Of a stretch of 40,338 bases of DNA, positions 19,856 to 39,925 are shown one piece after another. The notes under the pieces are model-generated. The model did not search any database and was not told the DNA's origin. It was given only the letters and a program-made list of their open reading frames with translations. Position numbers and translations under genes: made by a program. This DNA is from an uncultured Solibacteraceae bacterium (GTDB lineage Bacteria > Acidobacteriota > Terriglobia > Bryobacterales > Bryobacteraceae). The stretch spans positions 1 through 40,338 of the forward strand of contig CAZPZE010000922.1 in the NCBI GenBank assembly GCA_964590625.1, written 5' to 3'. Numbering within the stretch: position 1 is the stretch's first letter; each line of letters opens with the position of its first letter.

Positions 19856-20518
19856 TCAGGCAACGACGGAGATGTTGTCGACGACGTCGGTCACGCCAGG
19901 AGCGGCCCAGGCGGCGCGCTCGGCTTCGCGGCGCTCAAACCAGGAACGAACGCTGCCAGACAGAAACACTTTTCCATCCACGGCGGAAACGTTGATGCGG
20001 CGGGCGTCGAGCTCAGCGTTGCGGCGCAGCGCATCTTCGATTCTTCCGGAAACAACGCCAGCCGTCACATGCGGCTTCACCTGGATGCTGTTGATGACGC
20101 CGCGGACACCTTCCACAGTGCGGGCGCAGGATTCGGCGGCCTCCTTCTGATAATTCCACTCGACCGAACCGGTCAAAGTGACGAAGCCGTGGGAGACGAC
20201 GGCCTTGATCTTCTCATCCGGCACCATGACGTTGATCTTCATGGAATGAAGCACGTCGCGCGCGATATCGGGATCGACGCGCTTGTTATCCGGCTGGACT
20301 TCGATGTCATTCGTGATGGCTTCGACGCCATACACCGACTGGGCGGCCTTCTCCGCCGCGTATTTTTCGGCAAACGTGGGGACATAGCCAGTGAGCATCA
20401 CGATCTTGCCGGACACGGAGACCATAATGTTCCTCGATGTAATTCGGGGATCCCATTCGATCTGGCGAATCACGTCGTCGCGCAGGCGCTCGGCTTTTTC
20501 TTTCTGATTGGTCTGCAT
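19856..20518 (-). CDS. BON-domain protein (three BON repeats, OsmY-like, no signal peptide seen)
   Basis: 220 aa from the ATG at 20518, preceded by AGGAGAGG. BON-like units repeat three times: VSGKIVMLTGYV...GVEAITNDIEV, HGFVTLTGSV...GVRGVINSIQV and DGKVFLSGSV...GVTDVVDNISV. Confidence 0.85.
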   Translation of the reverse strand: MQTNQKEKAERLRDDVIRQIEWDPRITSRNIMVSVSGKIVMLTGYVPTFAEKYAAEKAAQSVYGVEAITNDIEVQPDNKRVDPDIARDVLHSMKINVMVPDEKIKAVVSHGFVTLTGSVEWNYQKEAAESCARTVEGVRGVINSIQVKPHVTAGVVSGRIEDALRRNAELDARRINVSAVDGKVFLSGSVRSWFERREAERAAWAAPGVTDVVDNISVVA

Positions 20519-20569: not shown

Positions 20570-20586
20570 CTGCGAATGACCGGCCA
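20570..20586 (-). promoter_or_regulatory. Candidate -24/-12 promoter for the BON gene
   Basis: The minus strand reads TGGCCGGTCATTCGCAG (GG-N10-GC; the -12 element is TCGCA). It lies 53 nt upstream of the ATG at 20518. Confidence 0.35.
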
Positions 20587-20645: not shown

Positions 20646-20671
20646 GCGCTGCGCGATATCACCCATCCTGC
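20646..20671 (+). promoter_or_regulatory. Conserved intergenic element (copy 1), candidate enhancer/operator
   Basis: GCGCTGCGCGATATCACCCATCCTGC matches 37972-37997 at 23 of 26 positions. It sits between divergent BON and USP genes. The core TGCGCGATATCACCCA is an imperfect palindrome centred on GATATC. Confidence 0.55.
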
Positions 20672-20745: not shown

Positions 20746-20762
20746 TGGCTCCCGGGATGCAC
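20746..20762 (+). promoter_or_regulatory. Candidate -24/-12 promoter for the USP gene at 20773
   Basis: TGGCTCCCGGGATGCAC fits TGGC-N8-TGC. The -12 C lies 12 nt before the ATG, which implies an almost leaderless transcript. Confidence 0.4.
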
Positions 20763-20772
20763 TCCACAGGGC

Positions 20773-21606
20773 ATGCCACAGATCAAACGAATTCTCTTCC
20801 CAGTCGATTTCTCGCCTGCCTGCTCCGGAGCGGCCCGCTATGCGGAGGCTCTCGCCGGCCGGTTTCAGGCGGACATCACCGTGCTGCACGTGGTGGGAGA
20901 CGGTGAGCATAATCTGGCGGAGACCCTGATTCCGCAGCGGAAGGAGAAGCTGAATCAGTTCGCCGCGGGCGACCTGAGATACTTCAGCACGCGCGTGGAA
21001 TGCCAGACCGCGAACGATCCGGCGGCCGCGATCGTAAGCGAGGCGAAGCGATCGGATGCGGACCTGATCATGATCCCGTCGCACGGTCTGGGAGCTTTTC
21101 GACGGCTGCTCCTCGGGTCCGTGACAGCCAGAGTGCTTCACGATGCGGAATGCCCTGTGTGGACTTCCGTGCATGCGGAAACGGCGCCGACGCTCGAGAA
21201 TGTGCACTGCCGGAAAGTTCTGGTGGCGGTGGATCTGAGTCCGCGGAGCCGGCGCATTGTGGAGTGGGCGGCGTGGATCGCGAAAGAATACGACGCAGAA
21301 CTCGGGATCGTTCACGCGGCTGCGCCGTGGCCTCCGGCGTATTACAGCGGCGAAGCGGTGTTCACGGAAGCCATCATGAACGAAGGGACGAACCTGGTGA
21401 ACGCGCTGAAGACCGACATCGGCCTGGAGGCAGAGGTGTTCACCGGCGCAGGCGAGCCCGCGCAGATCGTGGCCGGCGCGGCCGCGGAATTCGGGGCTGA
21501 TCTGCTGGTGATCGGACGGCACTCCGGCAGTGAAACGTCCCATTATCTGGGGCAGCATGCGTACTCGATCATCCGAAGTTCGCCATGTCCCGTCATCAGC
21601 ATTTAG
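20773..21606 (+). CDS. Universal stress protein, tandem USP domains
   Basis: 277 aa from the ATG at 20773 (MPQIKRILFPVDFS). Second domain KVLVAVDLS. The GxxG...S nucleotide-binding-like tail VIGRHSGS is present. Confidence 0.85.
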   Translation: MPQIKRILFPVDFSPACSGAARYAEALAGRFQADITVLHVVGDGEHNLAETLIPQRKEKLNQFAAGDLRYFSTRVECQTANDPAAAIVSEAKRSDADLIMIPSHGLGAFRRLLLGSVTARVLHDAECPVWTSVHAETAPTLENVHCRKVLVAVDLSPRSRRIVEWAAWIAKEYDAELGIVHAAAPWPPAYYSGEAVFTEAIMNEGTNLVNALKTDIGLEAEVFTGAGEPAQIVAGAAAEFGADLLVIGRHSGSETSHYLGQHAYSIIRSSPCPVISI

Positions 21607-22433
21607 CGCTGCTGATGCTGGCGGTGTCGCACACGGCGCTGTGCCAGGAGATCGAGGCGCAGGATATCGTCCGGCGTTCGATGGCGCTGCTGCGCGAGGC
21701 GTGGGATGCAGCGCCACACTATGCGTTCGTACAGCGCGATGAAACGCAGAGCGGCGGCAGGACGGTGAGCCGGACCCATCAGGTGGTGATGATTGACGGA
21801 TCAGACTACTATCTGCCGATCGCGAATAACGATGAACCGCTCGGCGCAGCGGAACGCGCGCGCGAATTGCAGAAGCTGAAAAATGAGAAGGCGCGGCGCG
21901 ATCGGGAAAGCGCAAAGGAGCGGGAAAAGAGAGCCGCGAACTACCTGCAGCAGCGGCGGCAGAACGGCATGTTCATCACGGAACTGCCGGAAGCGTTCCA
22001 CTTCACGCTGATACGGGAAGCGACGTTGCCGGACGGACACGAAGTATGGGTTTTGGCAGCGGCGCCAAAGCAGCGGCAGGGGCCGTTGAGCCGCGAAGCG
22101 AAGGTGCTCTCCGGCATGAGGGGTTATCTGTGGGTGGAGAAGGAAAGCTACAGAGTAGTGCGGGCGGAAGCGAGCGTCACTGAGCCGGTTTCGATCTTCG
22201 GGATTTTCGCGCGCGTGCTGCCCGGCACGCGGCTGGAGCTTGCGACCGAGCCGGTGTCCGGCGCTCCGCCGATGCTGAGCCGCATGGCAGTAAATCTGGT
22301 GATTTCCCGGTTGTGGTTTCGTTCCACACAGCAGAAGATCACAACATTCTCCTCATGGCGTCCGAATGAAGAAGTGATGAACGAGCTGACCGGAAACGCG
22401 TCAGCAGCAGAAGCTCAGGACGGGGCAAGATGA
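21585..22433 (+). CDS. Hypothetical exported protein (possibly LolA-like/outer-membrane lipoprotein-sorting fold; weak)
   Basis: 282-aa ORF with short signal-like HLALLMLAVSHTALCQE and coding-like composition. It overlaps the USP gene by 22 nt. An alternative start at 21615 is possible. Confidence 0.6.
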   Translation: MSRHQHLALLMLAVSHTALCQEIEAQDIVRRSMALLREAWDAAPHYAFVQRDETQSGGRTVSRTHQVVMIDGSDYYLPIANNDEPLGAAERARELQKLKNEKARRDRESAKEREKRAANYLQQRRQNGMFITELPEAFHFTLIREATLPDGHEVWVLAAAPKQRQGPLSREAKVLSGMRGYLWVEKESYRVVRAEASVTEPVSIFGIFARVLPGTRLELATEPVSGAPPMLSRMAVNLVISRLWFRSTQQKITTFSSWRPNEEVMNELTGNASAAEAQDGAR

Positions 22434-23255
22434 GGCGCGGATAATGGCGTGCGCGTTGGTACGGAAGAGGCCGAAGCGCTCGCTGATGTGTCCGCGGCCG
22501 ATGACCACGAGATCGGCGTTCAACTGGTGCGTGGATGTGGCGAGTCCCTGCGTCAGGCCGTTTTCATAGATATCGATCGGATAATTAGTGCCGGAACGCT
22601 GCTGCAGTCTGGCAATCGCTTCGCGGCTCGACTGCAGCAGGAAATGCCGGAAGTCGATTTCGCTGAAACCTTCGGTGCTGAGAGGCGCGGCGTTGATGGC
22701 ATGAAACAAATGGAGGCGCGCGGAAAAGAACACAGCCAGCTCGTGCGCTCGCCGAATGAGCTCTTCGTTTTGCGGCGTCACATCAATGGCGCACAGAATG
22801 GCGCGAATCGCGGGAGGAATTCTTCCGTGCGGTTTTTCGACGTGTGCCGAGGTCCACACGGGGCAGCGCAGGTCATGGAGGACTTTCGACGTGACGGAAC
22901 CGATGAGAAAGCGCCGAAAGGCGCCGAAGCCGCGCGTCGGCATCATAACGAGATCGACGGAATGCTTTTCGACGAACTGCGCGATGTTGCCGGCGGGATC
23001 ACCGTCCACGACGACGGTCTGGACGTCGAGAGAACTGTCCATGGAAGCGGAAAACGCGTGAAGACGGCTGCTCGCGTCCTGTCTGTGCTCGGGTGTAGGA
23101 GGCAGGTTGCCGAGCAGTTCCACTCCGGCGGGCGGGGTGAGCGCGTGCAGCAGCGTCAGTTTGGCGCCACATGCGCGCGTCATAAACTCCACGTCATGAC
23201 GCATCGCCTGGCATTGATCAGAAAAATCGACCGGGAACAGAATATTCCGGAACAT
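22401..23255 (-). CDS. Universal stress protein, tandem USP domains
   Basis: 284 aa from the ATG at 23255 (MFRNILFPVDFS), preceded by AGGAGG. Second domain AILCAIDVT. Confidence 0.85.
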   Translation of the reverse strand: MFRNILFPVDFSDQCQAMRHDVEFMTRACGAKLTLLHALTPPAGVELLGNLPPTPEHRQDASSRLHAFSASMDSSLDVQTVVVDGDPAGNIAQFVEKHSVDLVMMPTRGFGAFRRFLIGSVTSKVLHDLRCPVWTSAHVEKPHGRIPPAIRAILCAIDVTPQNEELIRRAHELAVFFSARLHLFHAINAAPLSTEGFSEIDFRHFLLQSSREAIARLQQRSGTNYPIDIYENGLTQGLATSTHQLNADLVVIGRGHISERFGLFRTNAHAIIRASSCPVLSFCC

Positions 23256-23662
23256 CGTCACGAATCTTCCTCCTTGAAAGCAGCAGGGCACGGGTCGAAC
23301 ACTCACGACTCCCGCACCCGCTAAAAAGAACTCTTCAGGACCCGCGACAGGCACACATGCCGCTGTCCGGCAAGCCGCCGGAGCGAAAACTCCAGAACTC
23401 TGTTCACCGCAAATTGGCGGCCCTGCGTCGCGGAACCGCTCATTCCTCCGGGCGGCGCAGGGCTATCGCGAATTATGGTTGCCAAGTCGCATGTGCCGTA
23501 CCACAACGAGGGGATGAAAATACAGGGCTTGCCGTTCGACACACAGACCCAATGAGTGGGTTCGCCCATGAGGTTGCGTGTTCACACCCAGCTGAGCGCC
23601 AGGAGTGGCAAGGCGGATTTGCGGCAGGTTCCCGGCTGCAAAAGTGCAGATCTGAATGGCGA

Positions 23663-26149
23663 ATGGCTGAGATAAACGGCGAAAAACGTCCGGTACGGGC
23701 GGGGCTGACCAGTGCGGCCGCCGAAGCGGCGTTCGCCGAATACGGACCCAATCTGCCGGTTGCGCAAAAGAATCATGCGGCCGTACTCACGTTTTTCGGC
23801 GCGCTGCTCAATCCGCTGGCGGTTATTCTTCTCGTCGCGGCGGGGATCGACGGTTTTCTCGGGCAGGTAACGGATGCGCGAATCATTGTTGCGGTAGTGC
23901 TGACCGGTGGGCTGATCAATTTTCTGCAGACCTTCCGCTCGCAGGCCGCGGTGGACCGGCTGCGCAGCCGTGTGCTGCCGACCGCGACCGTATTCCGCGA
24001 CGGAGCCTGGACGGAAGTACCGCAGCGGAACATCGTACCGGGCGATCTGATCTGGCTCTCGGCGGGAGATCTGGTGCCGGCCGATTCGATGCTGCTGGAA
24101 ACGAAGGATCTGCATCTGCAGCAATCCGCGCTGACCGGCGAGTCGTTTCCGGTGGAGAAGCGCGCCGCGGCCGGCGAGGAGCAACCGGTGAGCGAACCGG
24201 ATTCGCCCTATATGGTTTTTCTGGGGACGAATGTTGTGAGCGGGACGGCGCAGGCGCTGGTGGCCATGACGGGAACGCGAACCGTTTTCGGGAGCATCGC
24301 GGAACGTCTCGCGGTGCGGCCGCAGGAAACCGAATTCGAACGGGGCTTGCGGCGATTCGGCGGATTCATCATGCAGGCGGTCTTGTTTTTGCTTTCGCTG
24401 CTGCTGGTGATCAGCATCGCGCTGCGGCACGACGCATTTCAGTCGCTGTTGTTCGCTGTCGCGCTTTCTGTCGGGATGACGCCGGAGTTTCTGCCGATGA
24501 TCACATCCGTGACGCTGGCGAAGGGGGCGATGGAGATGGCGCGGCGGAAGGTGATCGTCAAGCACCTGGCGTCGATTCAGAATCTCGGCAGCATCGATGT
24601 TCTCTGCAGCGACAAGACAGGGACGCTGACGGCGGGCGAGATGAAGGTGGAGATGGCGATTCGTCCGGATGGATCGCCTTCGCCCGAGGTGCTGACGCTG
24701 GCCTGGCTGAACAGCCGGTTCGAGACCGGCATACGCAGCCCGCTCGATCACGCCATTCTGAAGATGGATTGCCGGCATCCGGAGACGATCCGCAAGCTGG
24801 ATGAGATTCCATTCGATTTCGAGAGACGCCGCGTGTCGGTCGTGATGGAAAACGGGGCGGAGCGAACTCTGATTTCCAAAGGCTCGCCCGAAGGGATTGT
24901 CTCGATCTGCAGCAGCTATGAAAGCGGCGGCGCGGCGGCTGAGCTGGATGAGCCGGCGCGGGCCGCCTGCCTGAAGCGATTTGAGGAGCTGAGCCGCAGC
25001 GGCTTCCGGATGCTCGCCGTGGCCTCGAAGCGAGTGGGGCCTGCGCAAGCCTACACGATTGCCGACGAGACCGGCCTTTGCCTCGCGGGTTTCATCGCAT
25101 TCTCCGATCCTCCGCTGGAGGATGCGGCTGAGATGCTGAGGTCTCTGCGCGCCGACGGTGTGGCGATGAAGATCATCACCGGCGATAACGAACTGGTTAC
25201 GCGGCACGTGTGCGACCGCGTCGGTATGAACGTGACGTCGATTGTGTGCGGAAGCGATATCGACATGATGACCGACCCGGCGCTCGAGCATGCGGCGGAA
25301 AACTCCGACGTCTTTGCGCGCGTATCGCCGATGCAGAAGAACAGGATCATTCTCGCGCTGAAGCGCCGGGGCCACGTAGTGGGCTACATGGGGGACGGGA
25401 TCAACGATGCTCCGTCACTGCGCGCGGCGGATGTGGGGATCTCGGTGGCGACGGCGGTGGATGTGGCGCGCGAGGCGGCGGACATGATCCTTGTGGAGCG
25501 GGGCCTCGAGGTGCTGCACGACGGGATTCTGGAAGGACGGAAGGCGTTCGGAAACGTGATGAAGTACATCCAGATGGGGACCAGTTCCAATCTGGGGAAC
25601 GTGATCAGCATGGCGGCGGCGTCGTTTTTCCTGCCGTTTTTGCCGATGCTGCCGACGCAGATTCTGCTGAACAACTTTCTCTACGACATTTCTCAGATCA
25701 CGATTCCGACTGACAAAGTGGACGAAGAGTATATTCGCTCGCCGCAACGCTGGGACATCGGCGCGATCCGAAGATTCGCGTTCACGATTGCGCCAATCAG
25801 CTCGCTGTACGATTTCGTGACGTTCTATGTGCTGCTGCGATTGTTTCATGCGCATGAAGCGCTGTTCCATACGGGATGGTTTGTGGAATCGCTGGCGACG
25901 CAGACACTGGTGCTGCTGGTGATTCGGACGCAAGCGAAGCCGTGGCGCAACTGGCCGAGCGCGCCACTGGCAGCCACGATTGCGGCGGCGGTTGCGGCTG
26001 CGCTGGTGTTGCCATTTTCGCCGTTCGCGGACGCACTCGGATTTACCGCGCTGCCGCCCGCATTCTTCCCGTTTCTGATTTTTGTGCTTGCGACTTATCT
26101 ACTACTGGTGGAAGTGATCAAGCGGCGGGTGATGGTCAGGACTGCTTAG
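23663..26149 (+). CDS. mgtA: Magnesium-translocating P-type ATPase
   Basis: 828 aa from the ATG at 23663 (MAEING). P-type motifs TGES, CSDKTGTLT, TGDN, GDGINDAP. MgtA-type blocks MTPEFLPMITSVTLAKG and NNFLYDISQITIPTDKVDEEYIRSPQRW. The ORF is open upstream to 23357, but the homology begins near 23663. Confidence 0.9.
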   Translation: MAEINGEKRPVRAGLTSAAAEAAFAEYGPNLPVAQKNHAAVLTFFGALLNPLAVILLVAAGIDGFLGQVTDARIIVAVVLTGGLINFLQTFRSQAAVDRLRSRVLPTATVFRDGAWTEVPQRNIVPGDLIWLSAGDLVPADSMLLETKDLHLQQSALTGESFPVEKRAAAGEEQPVSEPDSPYMVFLGTNVVSGTAQALVAMTGTRTVFGSIAERLAVRPQETEFERGLRRFGGFIMQAVLFLLSLLLVISIALRHDAFQSLLFAVALSVGMTPEFLPMITSVTLAKGAMEMARRKVIVKHLASIQNLGSIDVLCSDKTGTLTAGEMKVEMAIRPDGSPSPEVLTLAWLNSRFETGIRSPLDHAILKMDCRHPETIRKLDEIPFDFERRRVSVVMENGAERTLISKGSPEGIVSICSSYESGGAAAELDEPARAACLKRFEELSRSGFRMLAVASKRVGPAQAYTIADETGLCLAGFIAFSDPPLEDAAEMLRSLRADGVAMKIITGDNELVTRHVCDRVGMNVTSIVCGSDIDMMTDPALEHAAENSDVFARVSPMQKNRIILALKRRGHVVGYMGDGINDAPSLRAADVGISVATAVDVAREAADMILVERGLEVLHDGILEGRKAFGNVMKYIQMGTSSNLGNVISMAAASFFLPFLPMLPTQILLNNFLYDISQITIPTDKVDEEYIRSPQRWDIGAIRRFAFTIAPISSLYDFVTFYVLLRLFHAHEALFHTGWFVESLATQTLVLLVIRTQAKPWRNWPSAPLAATIAAAVAAALVLPFSPFADALGFTALPPAFFPFLIFVLATYLLLVEVIKRRVMVRTA

Positions 26150-26895
26150 ACCGGGAGAATTTGATTCTGGGTGAGCATAGCAAGCTCGCGCTCAGCCTGG
26201 CGGGGATGCGCGATCGCTTCATCGCGAGTGATCTGGCCGTCGCGGAAATAGATATTGCGCCCGCAGAAGGCCGCGATATCGGGCTCGTGCGTCACCATCA
26301 CGATCGTGATTCCCTGCTCGCGATTGAGACGCTGGAGGATCGCCATGATCTCGACGCTGGTGCGCGAATCGAGCGCGCCGGTGGGCTCGTCTGCAAGGAC
26401 GATCTGCGGATTGTTGACGAGCGCGCGGGCGATGGCGACGCGCTGCTGCTGGCCGCCGGAAAGCTGGTTCGGATGATGATCGGCGCGGTCCGCCAGTCCG
26501 ACGGCGGCGAGCGCCTTCAGGGCACGGGCGCGTGAATCCGGCACGGGCTGGTCGGCGTACAGGAGCGGCAGTTCCACGTTTTCAATCGCGCTGGTCCGCG
26601 CGAGCAGATTGAATTGCTGGAAGACAAAGCCGATGCTTCGATTGCGGATGGAGGCAAGCTGGTCGCGATCATAGCTTTCGATTTCGACGCCGTCAAGACG
26701 ATAAGTGCCGGAGGTTGCGCGGTCGAGGCAACCGAGAATGTTCATCAGCGTGGATTTGCCGGATCCGGACGGACCCATGACGGCGACGAACTCGCCGCGT
26801 TCGATCGTGAGAGAAACATCGCGCAGGGCGACGAGTGGAAGGCCGCCCAGTTCGAACACGCGGGTGAGGTGAGCGACTTCGATCAGGCTACTCAT
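26146..26895 (-). CDS. ABC transporter ATP-binding protein (MacB/LolD-type)
   Basis: Walker A GPSGSGKST, signature LSGGQQQRVAIARAL, Walker B ILADEPTGALD. It overlaps the upstream permease gene by 8 nt. Confidence 0.9.
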   Translation of the reverse strand: MSSLIEVAHLTRVFELGGLPLVALRDVSLTIERGEFVAVMGPSGSGKSTLMNILGCLDRATSGTYRLDGVEIESYDRDQLASIRNRSIGFVFQQFNLLARTSAIENVELPLLYADQPVPDSRARALKALAAVGLADRADHHPNQLSGGQQQRVAIARALVNNPQIVLADEPTGALDSRTSVEIMAILQRLNREQGITIVMVTHEPDIAAFCGRNIYFRDGQITRDEAIAHPRQAERELAMLTQNQILPV

Positions 26896-28126
26896 AGCGC
26901 AGGGCCTGAATCGGATCCAGGCTGGCGGCTTTGCGCGCCGGGTAGAACCCGAAGAATACGCCTACGAAGGCGGAAAACGCGAAGGCGAGTGCGATGGAGC
27001 CCGCGCTGACCACGGTGGCCCATCCCGCGAGCCACGAAATCAGAGTGCTTGCGGCGATTCCGAGCGCGATACCGACGAGGCCGCCGGCGAGCGAAAGCGT
27101 GACGGCTTCAATCAGAAACTGGCCGAGGATATCGCGGTTTTTCGCGCCGACCGCCTGGCGAAGTCCGATCTCTTTCGTCCTCTCGGTCACCGAGACGAGC
27201 ATGATGTTCATGATCCCGATACCGCCGACGATCAACGATACGGACGCGACGGCGGCGAGCAGGAGCGACATCACCTGAGCGGAGGATTCCTGGGCTTTGA
27301 AGACGTCCTCCATGTTGCGCACGGTGAAATCGTCGTCTTCGTTGCCCTGGAGGCGATGCCGCTGTCGCAGGAGGCGGCTGATCTCATCCTGCACTTCCGC
27401 CGTGCGGCCTTCCCGCCCCTGCACCATGATCTGCCCGACCGCGGAAAGATTCGCCTGGCTGGCGCCGAGAACCTTCTTCTTCGCGGTGGTGACAGGGATG
27501 ACGATGACGTCATCCTGATCCTGCCCCATGGGAGATTGTCCCTTCGCCTGCAGGACGCCCACCACGGTAAACGGAACGTTTTTGATCCGGATGATTTTGC
27601 CAACCGGGTCTTCGCCGCCAAAGAGATTATCCATGACGGTCTTGCCGAGGAGCGCGACGCGGGCGGCGCTATCGACGTCGGCTGTGGTGAACGACTGGCC
27701 TTCCCTGATTCCGATGTCGCGAATGGGGAGGTAGTCGGGAGTCGACCCGAGAATCTGAGTGGCCCAATTACTGCTTCCGTAGACAACCTGAGCGCCGCCG
27801 CGCACCACGGGCGCCGCGAACGCGACGGCTTCGCACTCGCGCGAGATCGCCTTCGCATCGTCCATAGTCAGGGTCTGCGCGTTCCCGGAGCCGAGACGTA
27901 TCCCGGAACTCGTCACGCTGCCGGAAAGCACGATGACCACGTTGCTGCCGATGGAAGCAATCTGCTCGCGAATACGGATCTGTGCGCCGGATCCGACCGC
28001 AACCATCGCGATCACCGCGGCCACGCCGATCACGATGCCGAGAATGGTGAGGGCAGAGCGCATCCGGTTGATGCGGAGCGCGCGGAAGGCGATCCGAATA
28101 CTGGCGGCGATTTTGCGCTTGTTCAT
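26888..28126 (-). CDS. ABC transporter permease, MacB-periplasmic-domain/FtsX family
   Basis: 412 aa. N-terminal TM helix, then a large periplasmic domain, then three C-terminal TM helices ending FYPARKAASLDPIQALRYE. Confidence 0.9.
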   Translation of the reverse strand: MNKRKIAASIRIAFRALRINRMRSALTILGIVIGVAAVIAMVAVGSGAQIRIREQIASIGSNVVIVLSGSVTSSGIRLGSGNAQTLTMDDAKAISRECEAVAFAAPVVRGGAQVVYGSSNWATQILGSTPDYLPIRDIGIREGQSFTTADVDSAARVALLGKTVMDNLFGGEDPVGKIIRIKNVPFTVVGVLQAKGQSPMGQDQDDVIVIPVTTAKKKVLGASQANLSAVGQIMVQGREGRTAEVQDEISRLLRQRHRLQGNEDDDFTVRNMEDVFKAQESSAQVMSLLLAAVASVSLIVGGIGIMNIMLVSVTERTKEIGLRQAVGAKNRDILGQFLIEAVTLSLAGGLVGIALGIAASTLISWLAGWATVVSAGSIALAFAFSAFVGVFFGFYPARKAASLDPIQALRYE

Positions 28127-28133
28127 GTGAGCC

Positions 28134-29630
28134 TCAGAAGCCCATCCGGCCTCCGCGTCCCGGAGCCGGCGCCGGTGTGCTGGCCTTTTTCTGCGCGGCG
28201 GCGGAAGTATCTCCTGTGATGACGTGGTCGCCTTCTTTCAGACCGCTGAGGACCTCGACGAAGTTGGCGTCGGAGATGCCGGTGGTGATGCGGACGGGCA
28301 GCGGGTTGCCGTCTGCGCCGCGCACGTATACGGTCGGGCGGCCATTGCGCGGCGCACCGCCGGGCTTCGTCTCGGCCGCCGGTGGACGATACCGCAGCGC
28401 GGCCTTCGGAAGACGCAAAGCTCCTTCGGCTCGCGCCACGGAGACCGTGACATTGGCCGTCATTCCCGGAAACAGAGCGAGGTCTTCATTGGAAACCTGA
28501 ACCACGACGTCATACGTGATCACGTTCTGCACGTTGATCGGAGCCTGGCGAATCTGTTGGACAACGCCGTGAAAGACACGGCTGGGCCAGGCGTCCACCG
28601 TGAAGGTTGCTTTCTGCCCCACGCGGATGCGGCCGATATCCGCCTCATCAACGTTGGTGTCCACCTGCATTTTGGTGAGGTCCTGCGCGATCAGGAAGAT
28701 AGTTGGCGCCTGGAAAGAGGCGGCGACGGTCTGGCCGACATCCATGTTGCGCGATTCCACAGTTCCATCGACAGGCGCCAGAATTTTCGTGTGGCTGAGG
28801 TTGAGCCGGGCCTGCGCCAGAACCGCTTCATCCTGGCGAACGAGGGCTTTTGTCTGTTCCAGCTGTCTCCGGGTCACGCTGACCTGATCCTGCGCGGACT
28901 TGTGGCTCGCCTCGGCCGCGGCAACGGCAGCTTTGGCCGCATCCACCGATGCGAGAGCCTGATCGTACGCCGCCTTCGAGGTGTCGGCATCTTCCACGGA
29001 AGTACTGCCGTTTCTCACCATCATCTGGCGGCGGTCATTGGCGATCTTCGCGAAGTCCGCGGCGCTCTGCGCTTTGACCAGATTCGCCTGCTGGCTCGCG
29101 ACCTGAGCGGCGGCGGCGGCGAGATCCGACTGCGATTTCGACAACGTCGCCTCGGCGGTTGCGACGGCCGAGTTTGCTGCCGCCAGCGCCGCGGAAGCCT
29201 GATCGACGGCGGCCTGGAAGGGTGCGGGATCGATTTCCGCCACTAGCTGACCCTTTTTCACCTTGGTGTTGAAATCCGCGTGAAGCGCGATGATGTTGCC
29301 GGAAACCTGACTGCCGACCTGCACGGTGATGACGGCGTTGAGATTCCCGCTGGTCATCACGGTCGATTCGATGGTGCCGCGGTCCACGACGGCGAACGTG
29401 TACGAACTCTTTGGGCCGCCGCGATTCAACAGGATCACGACGATTGCGGCGGCGATGAGACAGCCCGCGATCCACCAGACGAGCCGCCGAATCCGGCGAA
29501 ATCTCCGTTTGGGGGGTACGACGGCAATCGCTTCCGGCGGAGCGGGTTTCGTCAGCGGAACGCTCTCGAGGGACTTCAGATCCGTGGTCACGTTCGAAAT
29601 CTCCTGCCCGGTCATGTGCAGTTGAGGCAC
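28134..29630 (-). CDS. Efflux periplasmic adaptor (HlyD/MacA family membrane fusion protein)
   Basis: A TM anchor, then a long Ala/Gln-rich coiled coil, then beta-barrel motifs ILAPVDGTV and VITYDVVV. The start is either the GTG at 29630 or the ATG at 29615. Confidence 0.85.
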   Translation of the reverse strand: MPQLHMTGQEISNVTTDLKSLESVPLTKPAPPEAIAVVPPKRRFRRIRRLVWWIAGCLIAAAIVVILLNRGGPKSSYTFAVVDRGTIESTVMTSGNLNAVITVQVGSQVSGNIIALHADFNTKVKKGQLVAEIDPAPFQAAVDQASAALAAANSAVATAEATLSKSQSDLAAAAAQVASQQANLVKAQSAADFAKIANDRRQMMVRNGSTSVEDADTSKAAYDQALASVDAAKAAVAAAEASHKSAQDQVSVTRRQLEQTKALVRQDEAVLAQARLNLSHTKILAPVDGTVESRNMDVGQTVAASFQAPTIFLIAQDLTKMQVDTNVDEADIGRIRVGQKATFTVDAWPSRVFHGVVQQIRQAPINVQNVITYDVVVQVSNEDLALFPGMTANVTVSVARAEGALRLPKAALRYRPPAAETKPGGAPRNGRPTVYVRGADGNPLPVRITTGISDANFVEVLSGLKEGDHVITGDTSAAAQKKASTPAPAPGRGGRMGF

Positions 29631-29679
29631 CGCCTCGGAATCTTCCGAGCGTCCCGCGCGTCAACGAGTTGTCCCGCGA

Positions 29680-29699
29680 GCTGCGCGATTCGCTGCGCG
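29680..29699 (+). promoter_or_regulatory. Tandem GCTGCGCG motif upstream of the sigma54 activator gene (candidate enhancer site)
   Basis: GCTGCGCGATTCGCTGCGCG. The first 10 nt, GCTGCGCGAT, are identical to the core of the conserved elements at 20648 and 37974. It lies about 32-50 nt upstream of the -24 element at 29731. Confidence 0.4.
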
Positions 29700-29730
29700 T
29701 TTTGACGCAGGCAGGTGCGGGTTTACGGTG

Positions 29731-29746
29731 CGGCACGCGACTTGCA
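29731..29746 (+). promoter_or_regulatory. Near-consensus sigma54 (-24/-12) promoter upstream of the response regulator gene
   Basis: CGGCACGCGACTTGCA compared with consensus TGGCAC-N5-TTGCA: one mismatch at the first T, with correct GG-N10-GC spacing. The -12 C at 29745 is 16 nt before the ATG at 29762. Confidence 0.55.
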
Positions 29747-29761: not shown

Positions 29762-31168
29762 ATGCCGGAAGCTAATCATTCCGATATCACGATCGTCATC
29801 ATTGACGACAACGCGGCGAGCCTCGATCTGCTCTCATCGGCGCTCGAATCCGAAGCGATCCGGATTCTGACTGCACAGGATCCGAAAGAGGGGCTGGAAA
29901 CTGTTTTTCGGGAGCATCCGCAGATTGTATTAACCGATCTGGTGATGCCGGAGCTGAGCGGACTCGATGTACTGGACCGGATTGTGGAATTCGATCCCTC
30001 CATCGATGTGATTCTGATGACGGCCCATTATTCCAGCGAGTCAGCTGTGGAAGCGATCCGCAAGGGCGCCTCGGACTATCTGAACAAGCCGGTTTCGGTT
30101 GCGCTGCTGCGCGAACGAATCGCCAGGCTCATCGAAGACACGCGACGGCGCGAGCGGGTCAGTTCGATTGACGACAGCGAGTTGCAGGACGCCACATTCG
30201 AAGGAATGGTGGGGCGAAGTCCGGCGATGTGGGAGCTGTTTTCGCGGATTCGTCGCGTCGCACCGCATTACCGGACGGCGCTGATTACGGGCCAGACCGG
30301 GACGGGTAAGGAACTGGCAGCGCGGGCGCTGCATCGGCTGAGCCCGGTGAGCCGCGGGAACTTCGTGGTTCTGAACTGTTCCGCGGTGGTGGAAACCCTG
30401 TTCGAGAGCGAGCTCTTCGGACACGTGCGGGGCTCGTTTACCGGCGCAACCAGCGACAAAATGGGGCTTTTTGAGCATGCGGACAAGGGTACGATCTTCC
30501 TCGACGAGATCGGCGACATGCCGCTCGGCACGCAGGCAAAGCTGCTCCGAGTCCTGCAGAATCAGGAAGTGCTGCGGGTGGGTTCGCTGACACCGCGCCG
30601 GATCGACGTGCGCGTGATTGCCGCGACGCACCGGGATCTTCGGGCCGCCATTGTCGCCAAACAGTTCCGCGAAGATCTTTACTACCGGCTCTCGATGGTC
30701 GAGCTCCACACGCCTTCGCTTGCGGAACGCAAAGAAGATATTCCGCTTCTCACGCGCCACATGGTGGAGAAGTATTCGCATCAGTTCCAGAAGGACGTCC
30801 GCGGCCTGACACAGCGGGCGCAGATCCTGCTTGCGCGGCATGGCTGGCCCGGGAATGTGCGTGAGCTCGAGAACGTCATCGGGCACGGCTGCATGATGGC
30901 GATTGCCGATACGATCGATGTCCGCGATCTGCCGGAATACCTGCGGTTGCCGGCAGGCGCCGCGGCGTCGCAGCCCAGTGCGAGCGTCGTCATGGACGGC
31001 GGCAGTCTCGAAGAGAGTGAGAAGCGCATCATCCAGGAGGCGCTGCAGGCGGCCGGCGGAAATCAATCCGAAGCCGCCCGCCAGCTCCGAATCGGGCGCG
31101 ACGCGCTTCGTTACAAGATCAAGAAACACCACCTGGACCAACTGGCGGCAGCGAGGGCGACTGGGTGA
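29762..31168 (+). CDS. Sigma54-dependent response regulator (NtrC-family enhancer-binding protein)
   Basis: Receiver domain with DD, LTDLVMP (phospho-Asp), MTAH and LNKP. AAA+ domain with GQTGTGKE, the GSFTGA sigma54-contact loop and a DEIGDM Walker B. C-terminal Fis-type HTH GGNQSEAARQLRIGRDALRYKIKKH. Confidence 0.9.
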   Translation: MPEANHSDITIVIIDDNAASLDLLSSALESEAIRILTAQDPKEGLETVFREHPQIVLTDLVMPELSGLDVLDRIVEFDPSIDVILMTAHYSSESAVEAIRKGASDYLNKPVSVALLRERIARLIEDTRRRERVSSIDDSELQDATFEGMVGRSPAMWELFSRIRRVAPHYRTALITGQTGTGKELAARALHRLSPVSRGNFVVLNCSAVVETLFESELFGHVRGSFTGATSDKMGLFEHADKGTIFLDEIGDMPLGTQAKLLRVLQNQEVLRVGSLTPRRIDVRVIAATHRDLRAAIVAKQFREDLYYRLSMVELHTPSLAERKEDIPLLTRHMVEKYSHQFQKDVRGLTQRAQILLARHGWPGNVRELENVIGHGCMMAIADTIDVRDLPEYLRLPAGAAASQPSASVVMDGGSLEESEKRIIQEALQAAGGNQSEAARQLRIGRDALRYKIKKHHLDQLAAARATG

Positions 31169-31241
31169 TTTTACCAATTAAGGAGAGCATAGTGAGCCAT
31201 TTGGCGCAGCTGACGCAGCTCAGCAGCCGGGAGTGCGTCTC

Positions 31242-32459
31242 ATGACGGCGAGACCCAGACTGGAAGTCATTACCCAGGCGGAGGAGGCGAGCGAGGAGGA
31301 GGCTTCACGGCGTTTTCAGGAAATTCTCGAGGCGGCGCCGGATTCCATTGTCCAGGTGGATGAGACGGGCCGGATTCTGGTGATGAATCGGGCGACGGAA
31401 GCCATGTTCGGGTATACGCGCGACGAGCTTCCGGGTCGATCGATCGAGGTCCTGGTTCCAGCCGCATCGAGCGGCGGGCAGCGGGCGGCGCATGGGAAAA
31501 ACCTGAGGCGCCCGATGGGCCGCGCGATGACCCTGGGAGCGATACGCAAAGACGGCAGGGAATTCCCGGTGGAGATCCGCTTCAGCCCCGTGGAATCCGG
31601 TGGAGAAGGGCGGCACATGGCGGTTATACGCGACCTCACGGAGCGGCGGCGGATCGAATGTGAGATACGCACGCTCGAGATGCGCTTCGGGCGGCAACGG
31701 AGGGACACAGAGGCCGAGATCTCGAGGCGGAACCAGGAAGTGCTGGAGGCAGAGCGGCTGAAAAGCCACTTCCTCGAGAACATGAACCGCGGGCTGCGGA
31801 CGCCGCTCAACACGGTCATCGGATATTCGCAATTGCTGCTGGAGGAGATTGACGGACCACTCAACGAAGAGCAGCGGCGGTTCCTCGACCACATCCAGCG
31901 TGATTCTCAACAGCTGCTCGAACTGATCAACAATATTCTCGATCTGAGCAGGATCGAATCGGGACTGCTCGAACTGCGGCCGGAGACGTTTCGGGCACGC
32001 GCGGAACTGCGAGGCATTCTCGAAATCGTGCGGAATGCGGCCAGCGCGAAATCGATCGAACTGCGGCTGAAAGGCGGCGAGGATTTTGTCCTGCGCGCGG
32101 ACGTGCGGCGCTTTCGCGAAATCCTGCTGAACCTCCTGAGCAACGCGCTGAGATACACACCGGGAGGAGGCGCGGTGATCGTATCGATCTCCACCGCGGA
32201 GGAGGCGGGATACTGTTGTCTCGCCGTGCAGGATACGGGGATTGGGATCGCTCCTGAGCACAAAGACGCGATATTCGACATTTTCTACCAGGTCGAGTTG
32301 GCAACAAAGGGAGCGCGTGACGTGACCGGGCTCGGCCTGGCCATCACAAAACATCTCATCGAGATGCACGGCGGGAAAATCTGGGTGGATAGCGAACCCG
32401 GCCGGGGAAGCCGGTTCAGCTTCACGATGCCGATCAATTCACACAACGGCCGCGGCTAA
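31242..32459 (+). CDS. Cytoplasmic PAS-domain histidine-kinase-like protein with a non-canonical H-box
   Basis: PAS domain ([34 protein letters not shown]). The DHp helix reads [17 protein letters not shown], where canonical kinases read xxxFLANMSHELRTPLN. The HATPase_c domain is intact: N box [14 protein letters not shown]1 VQDTGIGI, G2 GLGLAITK. No TM segments. Confidence 0.85.
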
Positions 32460-35126
32460 GGGTTCGAGCGTCAGCTTCGCTTCGACAATTCCGCCGCCGC
32501 CGAATTCTATCGTAAAGCCCAGTTTGCGGCAGAGGCCGATCATGGCAGCGTTGCTCTCGCGGATATCCGCCGTGATCAGCGATAGATTTTCATCGCGTGC
32601 AATGCCAATCAGCCGCCGCGCTATTTCCATGCCGAGTCCGCGGCGCTGCAGGCGGTCTTCGATGAGCACGCCCAGTTCGGCGGCGCGTTCGAAGTGCGCG
32701 CGGCTGAGCCGCCCGACGCCCAGGATTTCGCCCTGCTGCTCTGCGACCAGAGCAATCTCACGGTCGTAATCCGCAAAGCACACGCGGAGAAGACGCTCGT
32801 GCGAGCGGCGCGTTTCGAGAGAGATGGGCCCGAGATAGCGCTGCGAGACCGATTGTTCGGAGAGCCGGGTGTGGAAGCGCGCGATGGCGGGCTCATCTTC
32901 CGGCCGGATGGGCCGAATGATGATTTGACCGCCGCCGGGAAATTCCCACGGCTTCACGTATTGCGACGGATAGGGCCGGATCGCGGGGCGAGGAAGCGCC
33001 GCGGCGTCCGCCGCATGAAGGATGACGCGCGCATCGAGAGCCAGAATGCCGGAAGGCGATGCCAGCAGCGGATTGATATCGATTTCTTTGATGGCGGGGT
33101 TTTCGAGAACGAGATCGCTGAAGCGGACCAGGATGTTTTCGAGGGCCGCGAGATCCACGCTGCGGCGTCCGCGAACGCCGCCCAGCGCGGTGAAGATTTT
33201 CGTGCGCCGCATGAGCGAAGCGGCGAGTGTGGTGTTGAGAGGCGGCAGCCCGATCGCGCGATCCCGGTAGACTTCGACGAGCTGTCCGCCGCTGCCGAAC
33301 AGAATGATGGGGCCGAACTGCGGATCCATGCTGGCGCCGAGGATCAGTTCGTAGCCGTCGCGGGGCGCCATCTGCTGGACGGTGACTCCCTGGAAGTGCT
33401 GCGCGCCGGCTTTTTCGGTAACGGACTGGCGGATGGTCTGAAATGCCCGGATCACTTCATCGCGGCTGCCGATGTTGAGCTGAACGCCGCCGACGTCCGT
33501 CTTGTGAGTAACGGTTTCGGAATGCAGTTTGACGGCGACGGGGAACGTCATCTGTTCCGCGATGGCGGCGGCTTCCGCTTCGGTGCGCGCGATCGCGGTG
33601 CGGACGCAGGGAATTCCCCACGCTTCGAGCAACTGTTTGGATTCGGCTTCGGTGAGCAGAAGCCGGCCGGACGCACGAATCCTGCCGAGCTGCGATGCGG
33701 TTCCGGCGCGGGCGCTCTCACTCGATGCGGGCGCGGGCTTCTCCGGCGTCTGGTAGAGCGATTCGATTCCCACGCTGTAATTCCACGTGAGATCGAAGAT
33801 GCGCGCGGCGGAATCCGGATAGCTGTAAGTCGGAATCCTGGCTTCGTTGAGGATAGCTTCGCCGCGCATCGCCTGTTCGCCGCCCATCCAGCTCGCGAAG
33901 ACCGGCTTGCCGATGGCGCGAAGCGTGGGCGCGAGGACTTCAGCAACGGTCACCGGATTTGTAGGACCCGTAGGGGCCAGCGCCACCAGAATGCCATCCG
34001 TGCCGGCGTCGCGGGCGACGATATCGAGGACCTTGCAGAAGCGCTCCGGCGTGGCATCGCCGAGAATATCGACGGGATTGGCGTGACTCCAGTGGGGCGG
34101 AAGAATTTCGTTGAGGCGCGCGAGGGCGGCAGGAGAGAGTTCGGCCAGCTGACCGCCGCCGGCGAGCAGGGCATCGGCCGCGAGGACGGCGGGGCCTCCC
34201 GCATTCGTGACGATGGCGAGGCGGGGGCCTTTCGGACGAGGCTGTTTGTCGAGCGCTTCGGAAAGATTGAAGAGCTCGGCGATGGTATCGACGCGCACCA
34301 CACCGCATCGGCGGAACGCGGCATCCAGCACGTCATCGCTGCCAGTCAGGGCACCGGTGTGCGAGGCCGCGGCCTTCGCAGCGGCTTCACTGCGTCCGGG
34401 TTTCAGTACAATGATCGGCTTCGATAATGCGACTTCGCGGGCGGCGGACATGAAAGACCGCGCGTCGCCGACCGATTCCATATAGATCGCAATGCTGCGG
34501 GTTTTTGGATCGTCTTCGAGATAGCGGATGAGATCGCCCCAGCCGACATCGGCCATCGAACCGACGGAGACGAAAGCGCTGAAGCCCATATGTTCGCGAT
34601 GGCTCCAGTCCAGAATCGCGGTGCAGAGAGCGCCGCTCTGGCTGATGAACGCGAGATTTCCGGGCCGTGCCATAGAGTTGGCGAAGGTCGCGTTGAGTCC
34701 GTGATGCGGACTCATGAGACCGAGGCAGTTCGGGCCGATGATGCGCATACCGCCGGCGCGCGCTTCACGGATGATGCGGTCTTCGAGCGCGCATCCCGCA
34801 GGGCCGGTCTCGCGGAAGCCGGCGGATATCACGATGGCCGCCTTCACACCGGCGGATGCGCAATCCGCAATCACTGCCGGAACGGTTTCGGCGGGCGTGG
34901 CGATTACCGCCATCTCCACGCCTGTGCCGATGGCGCTGACGGATGGATAGCACCGCAAGCCGCGAAGCGTCTCATGCTTCGGATTGACGGGATAAACGGG
35001 CCCACCGAAGGATGTCTGGGTCAGGTTGTCCAGAATCGAGCGGCCGACGGCGCCAGGCTTTTCGGTAGCTCCGACCAGCGCCACGTTGCGCGGGCGGAAA
35101 AAACAATCCAGCGGAGTGTGGCTCAT
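32439..35126 (-). CDS. pat: Pat/YfiQ-type protein lysine acetyltransferase (ADP-forming acyl-CoA synthetase-like domains plus C-terminal GNAT)
   Basis: 895 aa. N-terminal CoA-binding [17 protein letters not shown], succinyl-CoA-synthetase-like and ATP-grasp regions, and a C-terminal GNAT domain ([16 protein letters not shown]...[12 protein letters not shown]). Confidence 0.85.
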
Positions 35127-35132: not shown

Positions 35133-35966
35133 TCAGATGCTGAGAACGGCGCAGGGAGCTTCGCGGACGATTTCGTAAAGCGACGACCAGATTCGCGCGA
35201 GGTTCTCCTGCGCGAGGCCCCGCCCGGTCACGACAAGATCCGCATTGCGGCTGGTGGCTTCCTCGCGAATCGTGCTGGCGATCATTCCGCCCGCGACGCG
35301 GTGAGGCGCATCGATTCCGAGCTTGCCTTTCAGCTCGCGCATGCGGGCGTTCTCGGAAGCGACAATCTCTCGCTCATACACCGCGTAATCGAATTCCATG
35401 GATGCGGGCGGGAGCGCGACGACATGGACAATTGCGAGACTCGCGTCGTATTCTTCGGCCAGCCAGGAGGCTGCGCGGAGAACGCCCTCGGCTTCGGCGG
35501 TTTCATCGAGCGCGCAAAGAATGGATTTATAGGGCGGGGCCTTGCGGATAGCGTCCGGACCGGCAGTCCAGACGGCCGCGCTGGAATCGTGCAGGACTTT
35601 CGCCGTGACCGATCCAAGGAGCAGGCGGCGGAGCGGGCCCCAGCCGTGGGTTGGAAGCATCACAAGGTCCGAGCCCTGCTGCACGATTGTCCTCGTGATC
35701 ACCGATCCTGGTTCACCGGGCGCCGCGCAGCATTCCACGTGCTGTACCGGGAGAACTTTCGATGCCCACGCGCGCAGCCGATGGTTTTCGAAGACCCGAA
35801 GCTCATCGACGTCTGTGAACGTGGAGTGCGCCGCCTTTTCATCCCAGGCGTGGACGAGGCTGAGCTCGCACGACAGGCGCGCGGTCATTTCCTTCACCCA
35901 GGGAAGGATCGACTCGCAGGCGGGTGAGTAATCGGTGGGGAAAAGGATTCGTCGGAACGGGATCAT
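35133..35966 (-). CDS. Universal stress protein, tandem USP domains
   Basis: 277 aa, MIPFRRILFPTDYS, second domain SILCALDET. It ends 6 nt before the Pat start, so probably the same operon. Confidence 0.85.
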   Translation of the reverse strand: MIPFRRILFPTDYSPACESILPWVKEMTARLSCELSLVHAWDEKAAHSTFTDVDELRVFENHRLRAWASKVLPVQHVECCAAPGEPGSVITRTIVQQGSDLVMLPTHGWGPLRRLLLGSVTAKVLHDSSAAVWTAGPDAIRKAPPYKSILCALDETAEAEGVLRAASWLAEEYDASLAIVHVVALPPASMEFDYAVYEREIVASENARMRELKGKLGIDAPHRVAGGMIASTIREEATSRNADLVVTGRGLAQENLARIWSSLYEIVREAPCAVLSI

Positions 35967-36083
35967 GCCCGTGAGAGGGCAAGCTCCGGGCCGCGCGAGC
36001 GAAGCGATATGTTGCTTATTTTCAGAAGGACGCGCTGACGATCTGAGACGCGCCCAGCGGGGCTGCGCGCAACCTGCGGGATT

Positions 36084-37853: not shown

Positions 37854-37971
37854 TGGAACTTCCTCGCCAGAGAGAAGTGCACCCCGCATTCCGGCGCTTG
37901 CGCATCCCTTATCTTTCTCCTGCCAGAAGTTAGGTTTTTGCGCTGGGTGATTTCTATCAAGGCGGCCCCCG

Positions 37972-37997
37972 GCGCTGCGCGATGTCACCCAGCCCGC
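37972..37997 (+). promoter_or_regulatory. Conserved intergenic element (copy 2), candidate enhancer/operator
   Basis: GCGCTGCGCGATGTCACCCAGCCCGC matches 20646-20671 at 23 of 26 positions. It sits between the divergent HAD-ATPase and Hsp20 genes. Its TCACCCAGC arm (37985-37993) is inverted relative to GCTGGGTGA at 37942-37950. Confidence 0.55.
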
Positions 37998-38043
37998 CCG
38001 CGGGCCATGGGCCGTTTCAGAGTACTTAGAACGTGTCTGATGC

Positions 38044-38060
38044 TGGTGAACGGAGTGCAT
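38044..38060 (+). promoter_or_regulatory. Candidate -24/-12 promoter for hsp20
   Basis: TGGTGAACGGAGTGCAT has GG-N10-GC spacing and a TGCA -12 element. It lies 36 nt upstream of the ATG at 38095. Confidence 0.35.
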
Positions 38061-39830: not shown

Positions 39831-39925
39831 ATCGCGCGAACCGCCAAGTCTTTCGGAATACGGGCCTGACGGAAACAGGTAATCGCTTTGGTGAGTGAAT
39901 CAGCGCAGACTGTGTGGATTTGCCG

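Follow-up and report, generated by a model that had tools for sequence, protein, structure and literature searches.

The DNA analyzed here is a stretch of 40,338 nt (referred to as the window) from an uncultured Solibacteraceae bacterium (Acidobacteriota; Bryobacteraceae; GCA_964590625.1, contig CAZPZE010000922.1, positions 1-40,338 of the forward strand), which harbors a repeated 16-bp dyad in the spacers between divergently transcribed genes. This dyad is probably an upstream activator sequence (UAS) for sigma-54-dependent promoters and, as judged from the DNA sequence, the likely target of the NtrC-type regulator encoded adjacently. The core of the dyad is conserved in relatives and excluded from coding DNA, it is associated with -24/-12 promoters from which it is separated by helically phased distances, and one site is located at the promoter of the regulator gene.

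The element was brought to attention by a sequence-only reading of the window, which described a 26-mer found in the same orientation in two divergent spacers, i.e., those separating the genes of a BON protein and a universal stress protein (USP1), and of a HAD-ATPase and Hsp20, respectively:

20646-20671, plus strand: 26-mer copy 1, GCGCTGCGCGATATCACCCATCCTGC, in the BON<>USP1 divergent spacer
37972-37997, plus strand: 26-mer copy 2, GCGCTGCGCGATGTCACCCAGCCCGC, in the HAD-ATPase<>Hsp20 divergent spacer

The copies are identical at 23 of 26 positions (three differences), and none of 100 dinucleotide shuffles yielded a second match at three or fewer mismatches. The distances to the start codons, given as 127 nt for USP1 (ATG at 20773) and 123 nt for hsp20 (ATG at 38095), were confirmed, as was the occurrence of the 10-mer GCTGCGCGAT at 20648, 29680 and 37974, a count of three that is reached in one of 100 shuffles. 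The centre, TGCGCGAT followed by ATCACCCA, is an imperfect palindrome as stated, with six of eight pairs symmetric, i.e., 12 of 16 positions. Other parts of the description needed revision. While the repeat itself is real, only its inner 16-18 bp are kept in relatives and the flanks of the 26-mer are at background conservation. The flanking sequences had been called otherwise unrelated, but a second block common to both spacers is found around the plus-strand promoters. Upstream of the regulator gene, GCTGCGCGAT at 29680 is followed, as reported, by a second repeat, GCTGCGCG, at 29692, but it is this second repeat that constitutes the full site (29694-29709); the copy at 29680-29689 is a half-site located 12 nt upstream of the full dyad and overlapping it.

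The conserved unit is a 16-bp pseudo-palindrome with the consensus cTGCG[TC][GC]A-WW-T[CG][AG]CGCAg, obtained from a pool of 35 non-redundant noncoding sites. Its symmetry and the spacing of its half-sites, about one helical turn, would suit a helix-turn-helix dimer. In this pool, T1, G2, G4, C13, C15 and A16 are found at 97-100%, and positions past +/-1 are at background. A search of the window with the degenerate pattern identified four strong dyads (A1, B1, C and D below) against a Markov expectation of 0.7, each with one or two -24/-12 promoters 29-90 nt away (dyad-promoter distances refer to the site centre and the T at -26). In the two spacers, the primary dyad is accompanied by an auxiliary site at a centre-to-centre distance of 30-32 bp, which corresponds to about three helical turns:

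20650-20665: site A1, primary dyad TGCGCGATATCACCCA, 21.2 bits
20680-20695: site A2, auxiliary, TCATCAATTTCACGCA; only the half distal to A1 matches, centres 30 bp apart
37976-37991: site B1, primary dyad TGCGCGATGTCACCCA, 19.5 bits
37944-37959: site B2, auxiliary, TGGGTGATTTCTATCA; match limited to the distal half, centre 32 bp from that of B1
29694-29709: site C, dyad TGCGCGTTTTGACGCA, in the region that separates the HlyD-MacB-ABC operon from the operon encoding the bacterial enhancer-binding protein (bEBP) and the kinase
36075-36090: site D, dyad TGCGTGAAATCCCGCA (minus-strand reading); it overlaps the stop codon of the HAD-ATPase gene and precedes the USP2 promoter by 89 nt
39892-39907: weak site E, TGAGTGAATCAGCGCA, 12 bits, 69 nt upstream of the -24/-12 match before the alcohol dehydrogenase (ADH) gene

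Some additional dyad-like sequences were noted. The spacer between USP3 and the P-type ATPase gene contains two weak dyads (23553 and 23575) and a weak -24/-12 match (23610-23625). Two further sequences, TGAGCCATTTGGCGCA (31193-31208, 14 bits) in the 64 nt that separate the regulator gene from the kinase gene, and TGCGCGCAAACGCGCA (476-491, 15 bits) near the start of the window, have no obvious promoter partner and may be due to chance.

The claim that each 26-mer is flanked on both sides by candidate -24/-12 sites was substantiated, and promoters of this type were also found at the other dyads:

20571-20586, minus strand: BON promoter TGGCCGGTCATTCGCA, -24/-12 type, 71 nt from the A1 centre
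20746-20761, plus strand: USP1 promoter TGGCTCCCGGGATGCA, -24/-12 type, 88 nt from the A1 centre
37878-37893, minus strand: HAD-ATPase promoter CGGAATGCGGGGTGCA, -24/-12 type, 90 nt from the B1 centre
38044-38059, plus strand: hsp20 promoter TGGTGAACGGAGTGCA, -24/-12 type, 60 nt from the B1 centre
29731-29746, plus strand: promoter of the activator gene CGGCACGCGACTTGCA, -24/-12 type, 29.5 nt from the centre of site C
29617-29632, minus strand: candidate HlyD-MacB-ABC promoter CGGTGCCTCAACTGCA, 69.5 nt from the centre of site C, read by eye and just below the scan threshold
35978-35993, minus strand: USP2 promoter CGGCCCGGAGCTTGCC, -24/-12 type, 89 nt from site D
39815-39830, minus strand: -24/-12 match before the ADH gene TGGCTGCGCCGATGCG, 69 nt from weak site E

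A scan of spacer 1 for a sigma-70-like promoter gave none. In a set of 448 non-redundant upstream regions, a dyad of at least 16 bits was found 20-130 nt upstream of the -24/-12 match in 19 of the 144 genes that have such a match, while only 2 of 189 genes without a match have a dyad of this strength. The dyad-promoter distances fall into discrete classes, i.e., 29.5, 56.5-60.5, 67.5-71.5, 79.5-81.5, 88.5-90.5 and 99.5-101.5 nt, with a Rayleigh R of 0.79 at a period of 10.2 (n = 29 promoters). When the data were collapsed to 13 gene families, R was 0.68 with p ~0.002, which is statistical evidence only. Such helical phasing is expected of an enhancer that must face the promoter-bound polymerase.

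At USP1 (20746-20775) and USP2 (35964-35993, minus strand), the ATG is located exactly 13 nt past C(-12), a spacing that is kept in relatives (L211, L123, L125 and L126; the handles denote related loci). From this spacing, leaderless USP1 and USP2 mRNAs, made by the sigma-54 holoenzyme, are predicted. The predicted leader of the regulator gene is only about 5 nt.

Phylogenetic footprinting had been proposed as a check, and an element that is not conserved in related genomes would have spoken against the enhancer; the core is indeed kept in the BON-USP and HAD-Hsp20 spacers of orthologous loci, the proteins of which are 65-96% identical. Orthologous contigs were reached via homologues of the HAD-ATPase and USP1 with the same divergent gene pairs, and the compared loci are L123/L124 (96% protein identity), L126 (81%), L130-132 (82-83%), L210 (79%) and L213 (65%), as well as L125 (86%) and L211 (69%), which belong to one metagenome-assembled genome (MAG). 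In neither orthologous spacer alignment is the 26-mer kept as a whole, i.e., the 16-bp core persists while the neighboring sequence diverges. The orthologues of site A1 are TGCGCGATATCACCCT in L210, TGCGTGCTTTCACTCA in L211/L212 and TGCGCGAATTCACCCA in L213; site B1 is identical in L123 and is found as TGCGCGGTGTGACCCA in L125, TGCGCCAAATGGCCCA in L126 and TGCGCCATGTGACGCA in L130-132. The latter is a perfect palindrome, and another one, TGCGTGATTTCACGCA, is found in L143/L144, where it is located in the spacer upstream of the ADH orthologue. Of the auxiliary sites, A2 is kept as TCATCAAATTCACGCA in L210 and TCATCGATATCACCCA in L211, the B2 block TG[GA]GT[GT]ATTTC is present in all orthologous HAD-Hsp20 spacers, and L123, L125, L126, L130 and L132 have a secondary site displaced by +/-31-32 bp from the primary one. 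Site D is kept in L123, L124, L125, L126 and L129, in each case with a -24/-12 match at 88-89 nt, and the arrangement of weak site E and the ADH promoter recurs in L123. The promoters are also retained: that of BON in L211 as TGGCCGGACACGCGCA (read from the alignment), that of USP1 in L210 and L211 as CTGG-N9-ATGCAC, and that of hsp20 in L123, L125, L126 and L130-132 as CTGG-N9-(A/G)TGCAT. Less could be compared at L127/L128 (77% HAD orthologue), where the Hsp20 neighbor is lost and there is hence no spacer, and at L129 (69%), the spacer of which is not alignable by MAFFT and where the position weight matrix identifies a weak site at 9861.

The HlyD-MacB operons of L126 (10622-10800) and L138 (1359-1445) also have a dyad and a -24/-12 match, and the HlyD-MacB-ABC efflux operon is apparently another member of the regulon. 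A glycogen phosphorylase gene is found in the same neighborhood in L126 (460-2136), L132 (1384-3075) and L127 (8047-9966), and the copies in L126 and L132 are each preceded by a -24/-12 match with a separate dyad (13-16 bits) 89.5 nt farther upstream, which suggests that glycogen mobilization is part of the response. Two other conserved sequences were seen in the HAD<>Hsp20 spacers. The first, CCTTATCTTTCT (37908-37919), is located between the dyads and the HAD promoter and is kept in all orthologous spacers. The other, ACTTAGA (38024-38030), is located between the dyad and the hsp20 promoter, is likewise kept in all orthologous spacers and could be an IHF-type bending site.

The candidate binding protein and its presumed partner are encoded side by side:

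29762-31168, plus strand: NtrC-family response regulator and sigma-54 activator (REC, AAA+ with GSFTGA, HTH_8), the proposed binding protein
31233-32459, plus strand: PAS-HisKA-HATPase histidine kinase, adjoining the activator gene on the same strand, the presumed cognate sensor

The regulator contains the domains Sigma54_activat (9.6e-66) and HTH_8 (8.5e-15), and because it harbors Walker A (GQTGTGK), ESELFG and the GSFTGA loop, it is a true sigma-54 activator. Comparison with the NCBIfam equivalogs NtrC, AtoC, ZraR, PEP-CTERM PrsR, GlrR and NtrX gave scores that are all below the curated cut-off (e.g., NtrC 407.5/558.6, AtoC 399/714, ZraR 370/760 and PrsR 359/503); ZraR (1ojl) is among the solved structures closest to the regulator. 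A dyad is found at the regulator's own sigma-54 promoter both in the window and in L125 (89% identity), where site C is kept as TGCGTGCTTTAGCGCA, and in L129 (77%) a dyad and a -24/-12 match precede an OsmC-bEBP operon. No site was seen at the orthologue in L151 (66%), and most loci are too short to judge. Autoregulation of the regulator appears to be conserved. Together, the conserved core, its dyad symmetry, the phased -24/-12 promoters on both sides and the site at the regulator promoter support, at the level of sequence, the earlier suggestion that the element is a shared enhancer.

The following sequence of events is proposed by analogy to the established mechanism of NtrC-family activators. 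The PAS histidine kinase (31233-32459) would phosphorylate the response regulator (29762-31168), dimers of which would bind the dyad through the C-terminal Fis-type helix-turn-helix (HTH) and, in the two spacers, also occupy the auxiliary half-dyad about three helical turns away. The bound dimers would then assemble into an active AAA+ ring, which DNA looping would bring into contact with the sigma-54 holoenzyme bound to the two flanking -24/-12 promoters, and ATP hydrolysis would open these promoters. Because one enhancer is located between two divergent promoters, both units would be switched on together, i.e., BON with USP1, HAD-ATPase/USP2/ACS-GNAT with Hsp20, and HlyD-MacB-ABC with the regulator's own operon. 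In this scheme, we infer binding of a protein to the dyad, the activator as the binder, the identity of the signal and the bidirectional nature of activation.

A number of observations weigh against this assignment. The regulator was linked to the dyad from its adjacency, as the sole regulator in 40 kb and from the autoregulatory site, and the rest of the genome outside the window may encode other sigma-54 activators. Several promoters have one strong dyad only, while many activators need two or more. Site C is located only about 55 nt upstream of the predicted start, i.e., closer than a typical UAS, and this position could mean repression there. In the statistics, enrichment was counted on the very loci from which the position weight matrix had been derived, and many of the distance data points are orthologous and not independent. 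Furthermore, with the predicted starts, the transcripts of USP1, USP2 and the regulator gene would have hardly any leader or none at all, which requires either leaderless translation or a small error in promoter assignment.

The most serious alternative, although unlikely, is that the dyad is a real site for another protein, either a sigma-54 activator encoded elsewhere or a repressor or co-regulator, e.g., a CRP/FNR-like protein or another HTH dimer. All that can be read from the cis evidence is that some factor binds in phase with sigma-54 promoters, and the regulator was assigned solely by proximity, with no NCBIfam equivalog to inform its DNA specificity. In addition, the gene family shows exchange of regulator and UAS, as distant HAD orthologues have a different repeat upstream. 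These orthologues (55-60%; L172, L175, L182, L183, L185, L199, L189 and L162) have a -24/-12 promoter about 28-40 nt before the ATG, which is TGGCAGGYCACTTGCT-like in five of the eight loci, and upstream of it a GGRAWWWTCCC-type tandem repeat instead of TGCG..CGCA; from this difference it follows that the enhancer, and presumably the activator too, has been exchanged between lineages. On the other hand, no second DNA-binding regulator gene was found in the 40-kb window, the dyad is found at the regulator's own promoter in three lineages, and the orthologous activator gene adjoins regulon genes in L125 and L129. A position 55-125 nt upstream of the predicted starts, combined with the 10-nt phasing, also fits an enhancer better than a class I/II activator site or an operator.

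The remaining explanations concern the nature of the element itself and are far less probable. There is very little chance that it is a minus-strand sigma-54 promoter, TGGGTGACATCGCGCA (GG-N10-GC), driving BON and the HAD-ATPase operon, even though GG and GC are correctly spaced in both reverse complements and L125 and L126 show this arrangement at an unchanged position (-137/-138 relative to the ATG), with GG-N10-GC retained in three lineages. The top-scoring -24/-12 match of the HAD orthologues is nearer the ATG (28-57 nt before it, mostly 36-55) in about 40 of 80 upstream regions, BON has its own promoter at 20571-20586, the L130-132 site is without GG, positions -23/-22/-21 and -15/-14 deviate from the consensus, and the same dyad is also found where no gene lies downstream on that strand. 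This candidate was rejected on the basis of the conserved gene-nearer promoters and the loss of GG in L130-132.

It is equally improbable that the element is a dispersed mobile repeat, similar to repetitive extragenic palindromic (REP) sequences, a chance GC-rich match or a coding relic. The last possibility arises because the plus-strand frame translates to LRD(I/V)T(H/Q)PA, similar to a peptide of PAS domains, and because, in this frame, each of the three substitutions that distinguish the copies is either conservative or synonymous. Moreover, the 18-nt core GCTGCGCGATNTCACCCA, used instead of the 26-mer to search a genome collection, has at least 120 matches across many phyla, of which 117 of the 120 listed are in long open reading frames (ORFs). 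Among the listed matches, 62 are in the frame CTG-CGC-GAT-NTC-ACC-CA, i.e., LRD[ILFV]T[QH] (a common end of the PAS domain, its C-terminal strand, in sensor kinases), and 42 are in one reverse frame, where the other strand encodes G[DE]IAQ. Because GCTGCGCGATNTCACCCA is mostly coding in other phyla, this string search is not diagnostic and the orthologous spacers were used instead. Here, the dyad survives the changes between orthologues but the peptide does not; the frame is interrupted by a stop at 37948-37950 in spacer 2 and lacks a start codon beyond it, and in spacer 1 it overlaps the USP1 gene. For both strands, the possibility of a small ORF or coding relic was rejected on these grounds, i.e., the missing start codon, frames that overlap real genes and the broken peptide in orthologues. 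Chance is opposed by the shuffled sequences (0 of 100 with a 23/26 match). A dispersed repeat, found equally in coding DNA, had been named at the outset as the outcome that would speak against an enhancer. In 668 kb (the window and related loci; genes called by a codon-usage model, 84% coding), non-redundant dyad matches of at least 16 bits are 24 noncoding versus 3 coding, and those at 12 bits are 47 noncoding versus 20 coding. The sites are noncoding, all four strong copies in the 40 kb have a defined position relative to promoters, and their flanks are neither conserved nor part of an extended repeat. The least probable alternative is an element that acts as RNA, i.e., a 5' leader hairpin or attenuator. 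Palindromes can fold, and for the minus-strand transcript of copy 2 the predicted fold is slightly more stable than those of shuffled sequences (z = -1.88); however, the other three folds have z values of -0.2 to +1.2, there is no Rfam match, both copies are located between divergent promoters and upstream of the predicted starts on both strands, and the variation among orthologues preserves the T/G/G...C/C/A contacts and not base pairs. An RNA element was rejected given the lack of an Rfam match and of a folding signal.

The gene map places these sites, together with the proposed UAS and its regulator, among the following genes, where close homologues of the window proteins are from soil MAGs labelled Bryobacteraceae:

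19856-20518, minus strand: BON gene, divergent from USP1
20773-21606, plus strand: USP1, a tandem-domain USP (ATG 20773); an unknown ORF is next
22401-23354, minus strand: third tandem-domain USP (USP3), convergent, then the P-type ATPase gene
26146-29630, minus strand: ABC/MacB/HlyD operon, divergent from the response regulator gene
32439-35126, minus strand: ADP-forming acetyl-CoA synthetase (ACS)-GNAT fusion, in the HAD-ATPase/USP2 cluster
35133-35966, minus strand: USP2 (ATG 35966)
36084-37853, minus strand: HAD/DUF87 ATPase, divergent from Hsp20
38095-38601, plus strand: Hsp20 with a DUF2934 N-terminus (ATG 38095)
38708-39793, minus strand: zinc ADH, beyond hsp20

A plus-strand ORF at 22449-23324 is spurious, as the real gene there is USP3 on the minus strand. 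The start of the P-type ATPase gene is uncertain (23357 or about 23656-23663), and the likely true start of the HlyD-MacB-ABC operon is the GTG at 29591, which is preceded by an AGGAGA ribosome-binding site. Two of the gene products are unusual fusions. That of 32439-35126 (895 aa) is an ADP-forming acyl-CoA synthetase fused to a Pat-like GNAT acetyltransferase, and that of 36084-37853 (589 aa) is a HAD-IIB phosphatase fused to a DUF87/HerA-like ATPase. The latter fusion has thousands of homologues, and in 80 related loci USP, BON or sigma-54 activator genes often adjoin it.

On a wider scale, we tentatively propose, at somewhat less than even chances, that one PAS-kinase/NtrC-type system drives a dormancy-like island of about 20 kb in Bryobacteraceae-type Acidobacteria through one phased palindromic enhancer per divergent sigma-54 promoter pair, i.e., a sigma-54-based functional counterpart of the mycobacterial DosR regulon with leaderless USP mRNAs initiated by the sigma-54 holoenzyme. 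If true, this island would comprise three tandem-domain USPs, Hsp20, BON, the ADP-forming ACS-GNAT, the HAD/HerA-like ATPase, a MacB-type pump and ADH, probably the P-type ATPase, and in relatives glycogen phosphorylase. Acidobacteria are among the most abundant soil bacteria and most of them are uncultured; to our knowledge, the regulation of their survival when energy or oxygen is limiting is almost unexplored. The 16-bp motif, the promoters and the candidate regulator would define a testable regulon, the members of which could be predicted across Bryobacteraceae genomes, and the strict 10-nt phasing combined with one enhancer for two divergent promoters would make the system a clear case of enhancer geometry in nature.

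The kind of element discussed here is well understood and found in textbooks, while the dyad motif and the gene set are undescribed: among the papers of the library searched, none describes the motif or the regulon in Acidobacteria. The closest characterized analogue found is NmpR of Myxococcus xanthus (NmpRSTU), an NtrC-like regulator which acts at sigma-54 promoters through two GCGCA-N5-TGCGC dyads 14-15 bp apart and which, under hypoxia, activates its own operons together with a USP gene and the operon of a P-type ATPase (PMC11841059). Both systems have a GC-rich dyad with GCGC cores, and the 15-bp sites in Myxococcus are separated by about 29-30 bp centre to centre, compared to 30-32 bp here. 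In both cases the sites are intergenic (with one divergent pair among those of Myxococcus), the regulator/kinase operons of Myxococcus are autoregulated, as also appears to be the case here, and the Myxococcus regulon contains a universal stress protein and a P-type ATPase as part of a low-oxygen response. However, the Myxococcus consensus, which is absent from the window spacers, spans 15 bp with the A/T inside and the cores 7 apart, whereas the dyad found here, TGCGC-N6-GCGCA, spans 16 bp with the T/A outside and the cores 6 apart, i.e., one base closer. The two systems, which belong to different phyla, also differ in the input, i.e., a protoglobin kinase and a hybrid-kinase phosphorelay in Myxococcus versus a single PAS kinase here, and in the regulon, where cbb3 oxidase, HemN and hemerythrin are found in Myxococcus, while USPs, Hsp20, BON, ACS-GNAT and HAD-ATPase dominate here.

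In enteric bacteria, NtrC at glnAp2 recognizes TGCACC-N5-GGTGCA, where two strong sites are about three helical turns apart and located about 100-140 bp upstream of the -24/-12 promoter, and activation involves DNA looping and depends on the face of the helix. Here too, the sites are dyads, proposed to be bound by a REC-AAA+-Fis-HTH regulator, but the sequence is another one (17 bp versus 16 here) and the regulon is stress- or dormancy-like instead of devoted to nitrogen assimilation. In E. coli, one enhancer region serves two divergent sigma-54 promoters in the case of ZraR (zraP-zraSR), where one unit is the regulator's own operon, and of FhlA (hyc-hyp). The same arrangement, including the unit that encodes the regulator itself as with ZraR, is proposed here, but with another motif and another signal than zinc or formate.

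The content of the mycobacterial dormancy regulon controlled by DosR (DevR) has been described (PMC2914252). The likeness to the proposed Bryobacteraceae system is a functional analogy only, i.e., a two-component system with a palindromic box upstream of USP and alpha-crystallin/Hsp20 genes. DosR is of the NarL/LuxR type, does not belong to the sigma-54 enhancer-binding proteins and acts from boxes close to the promoter together with a sigma-70-type holoenzyme; the DosR motif bears no relation to the dyad described here.

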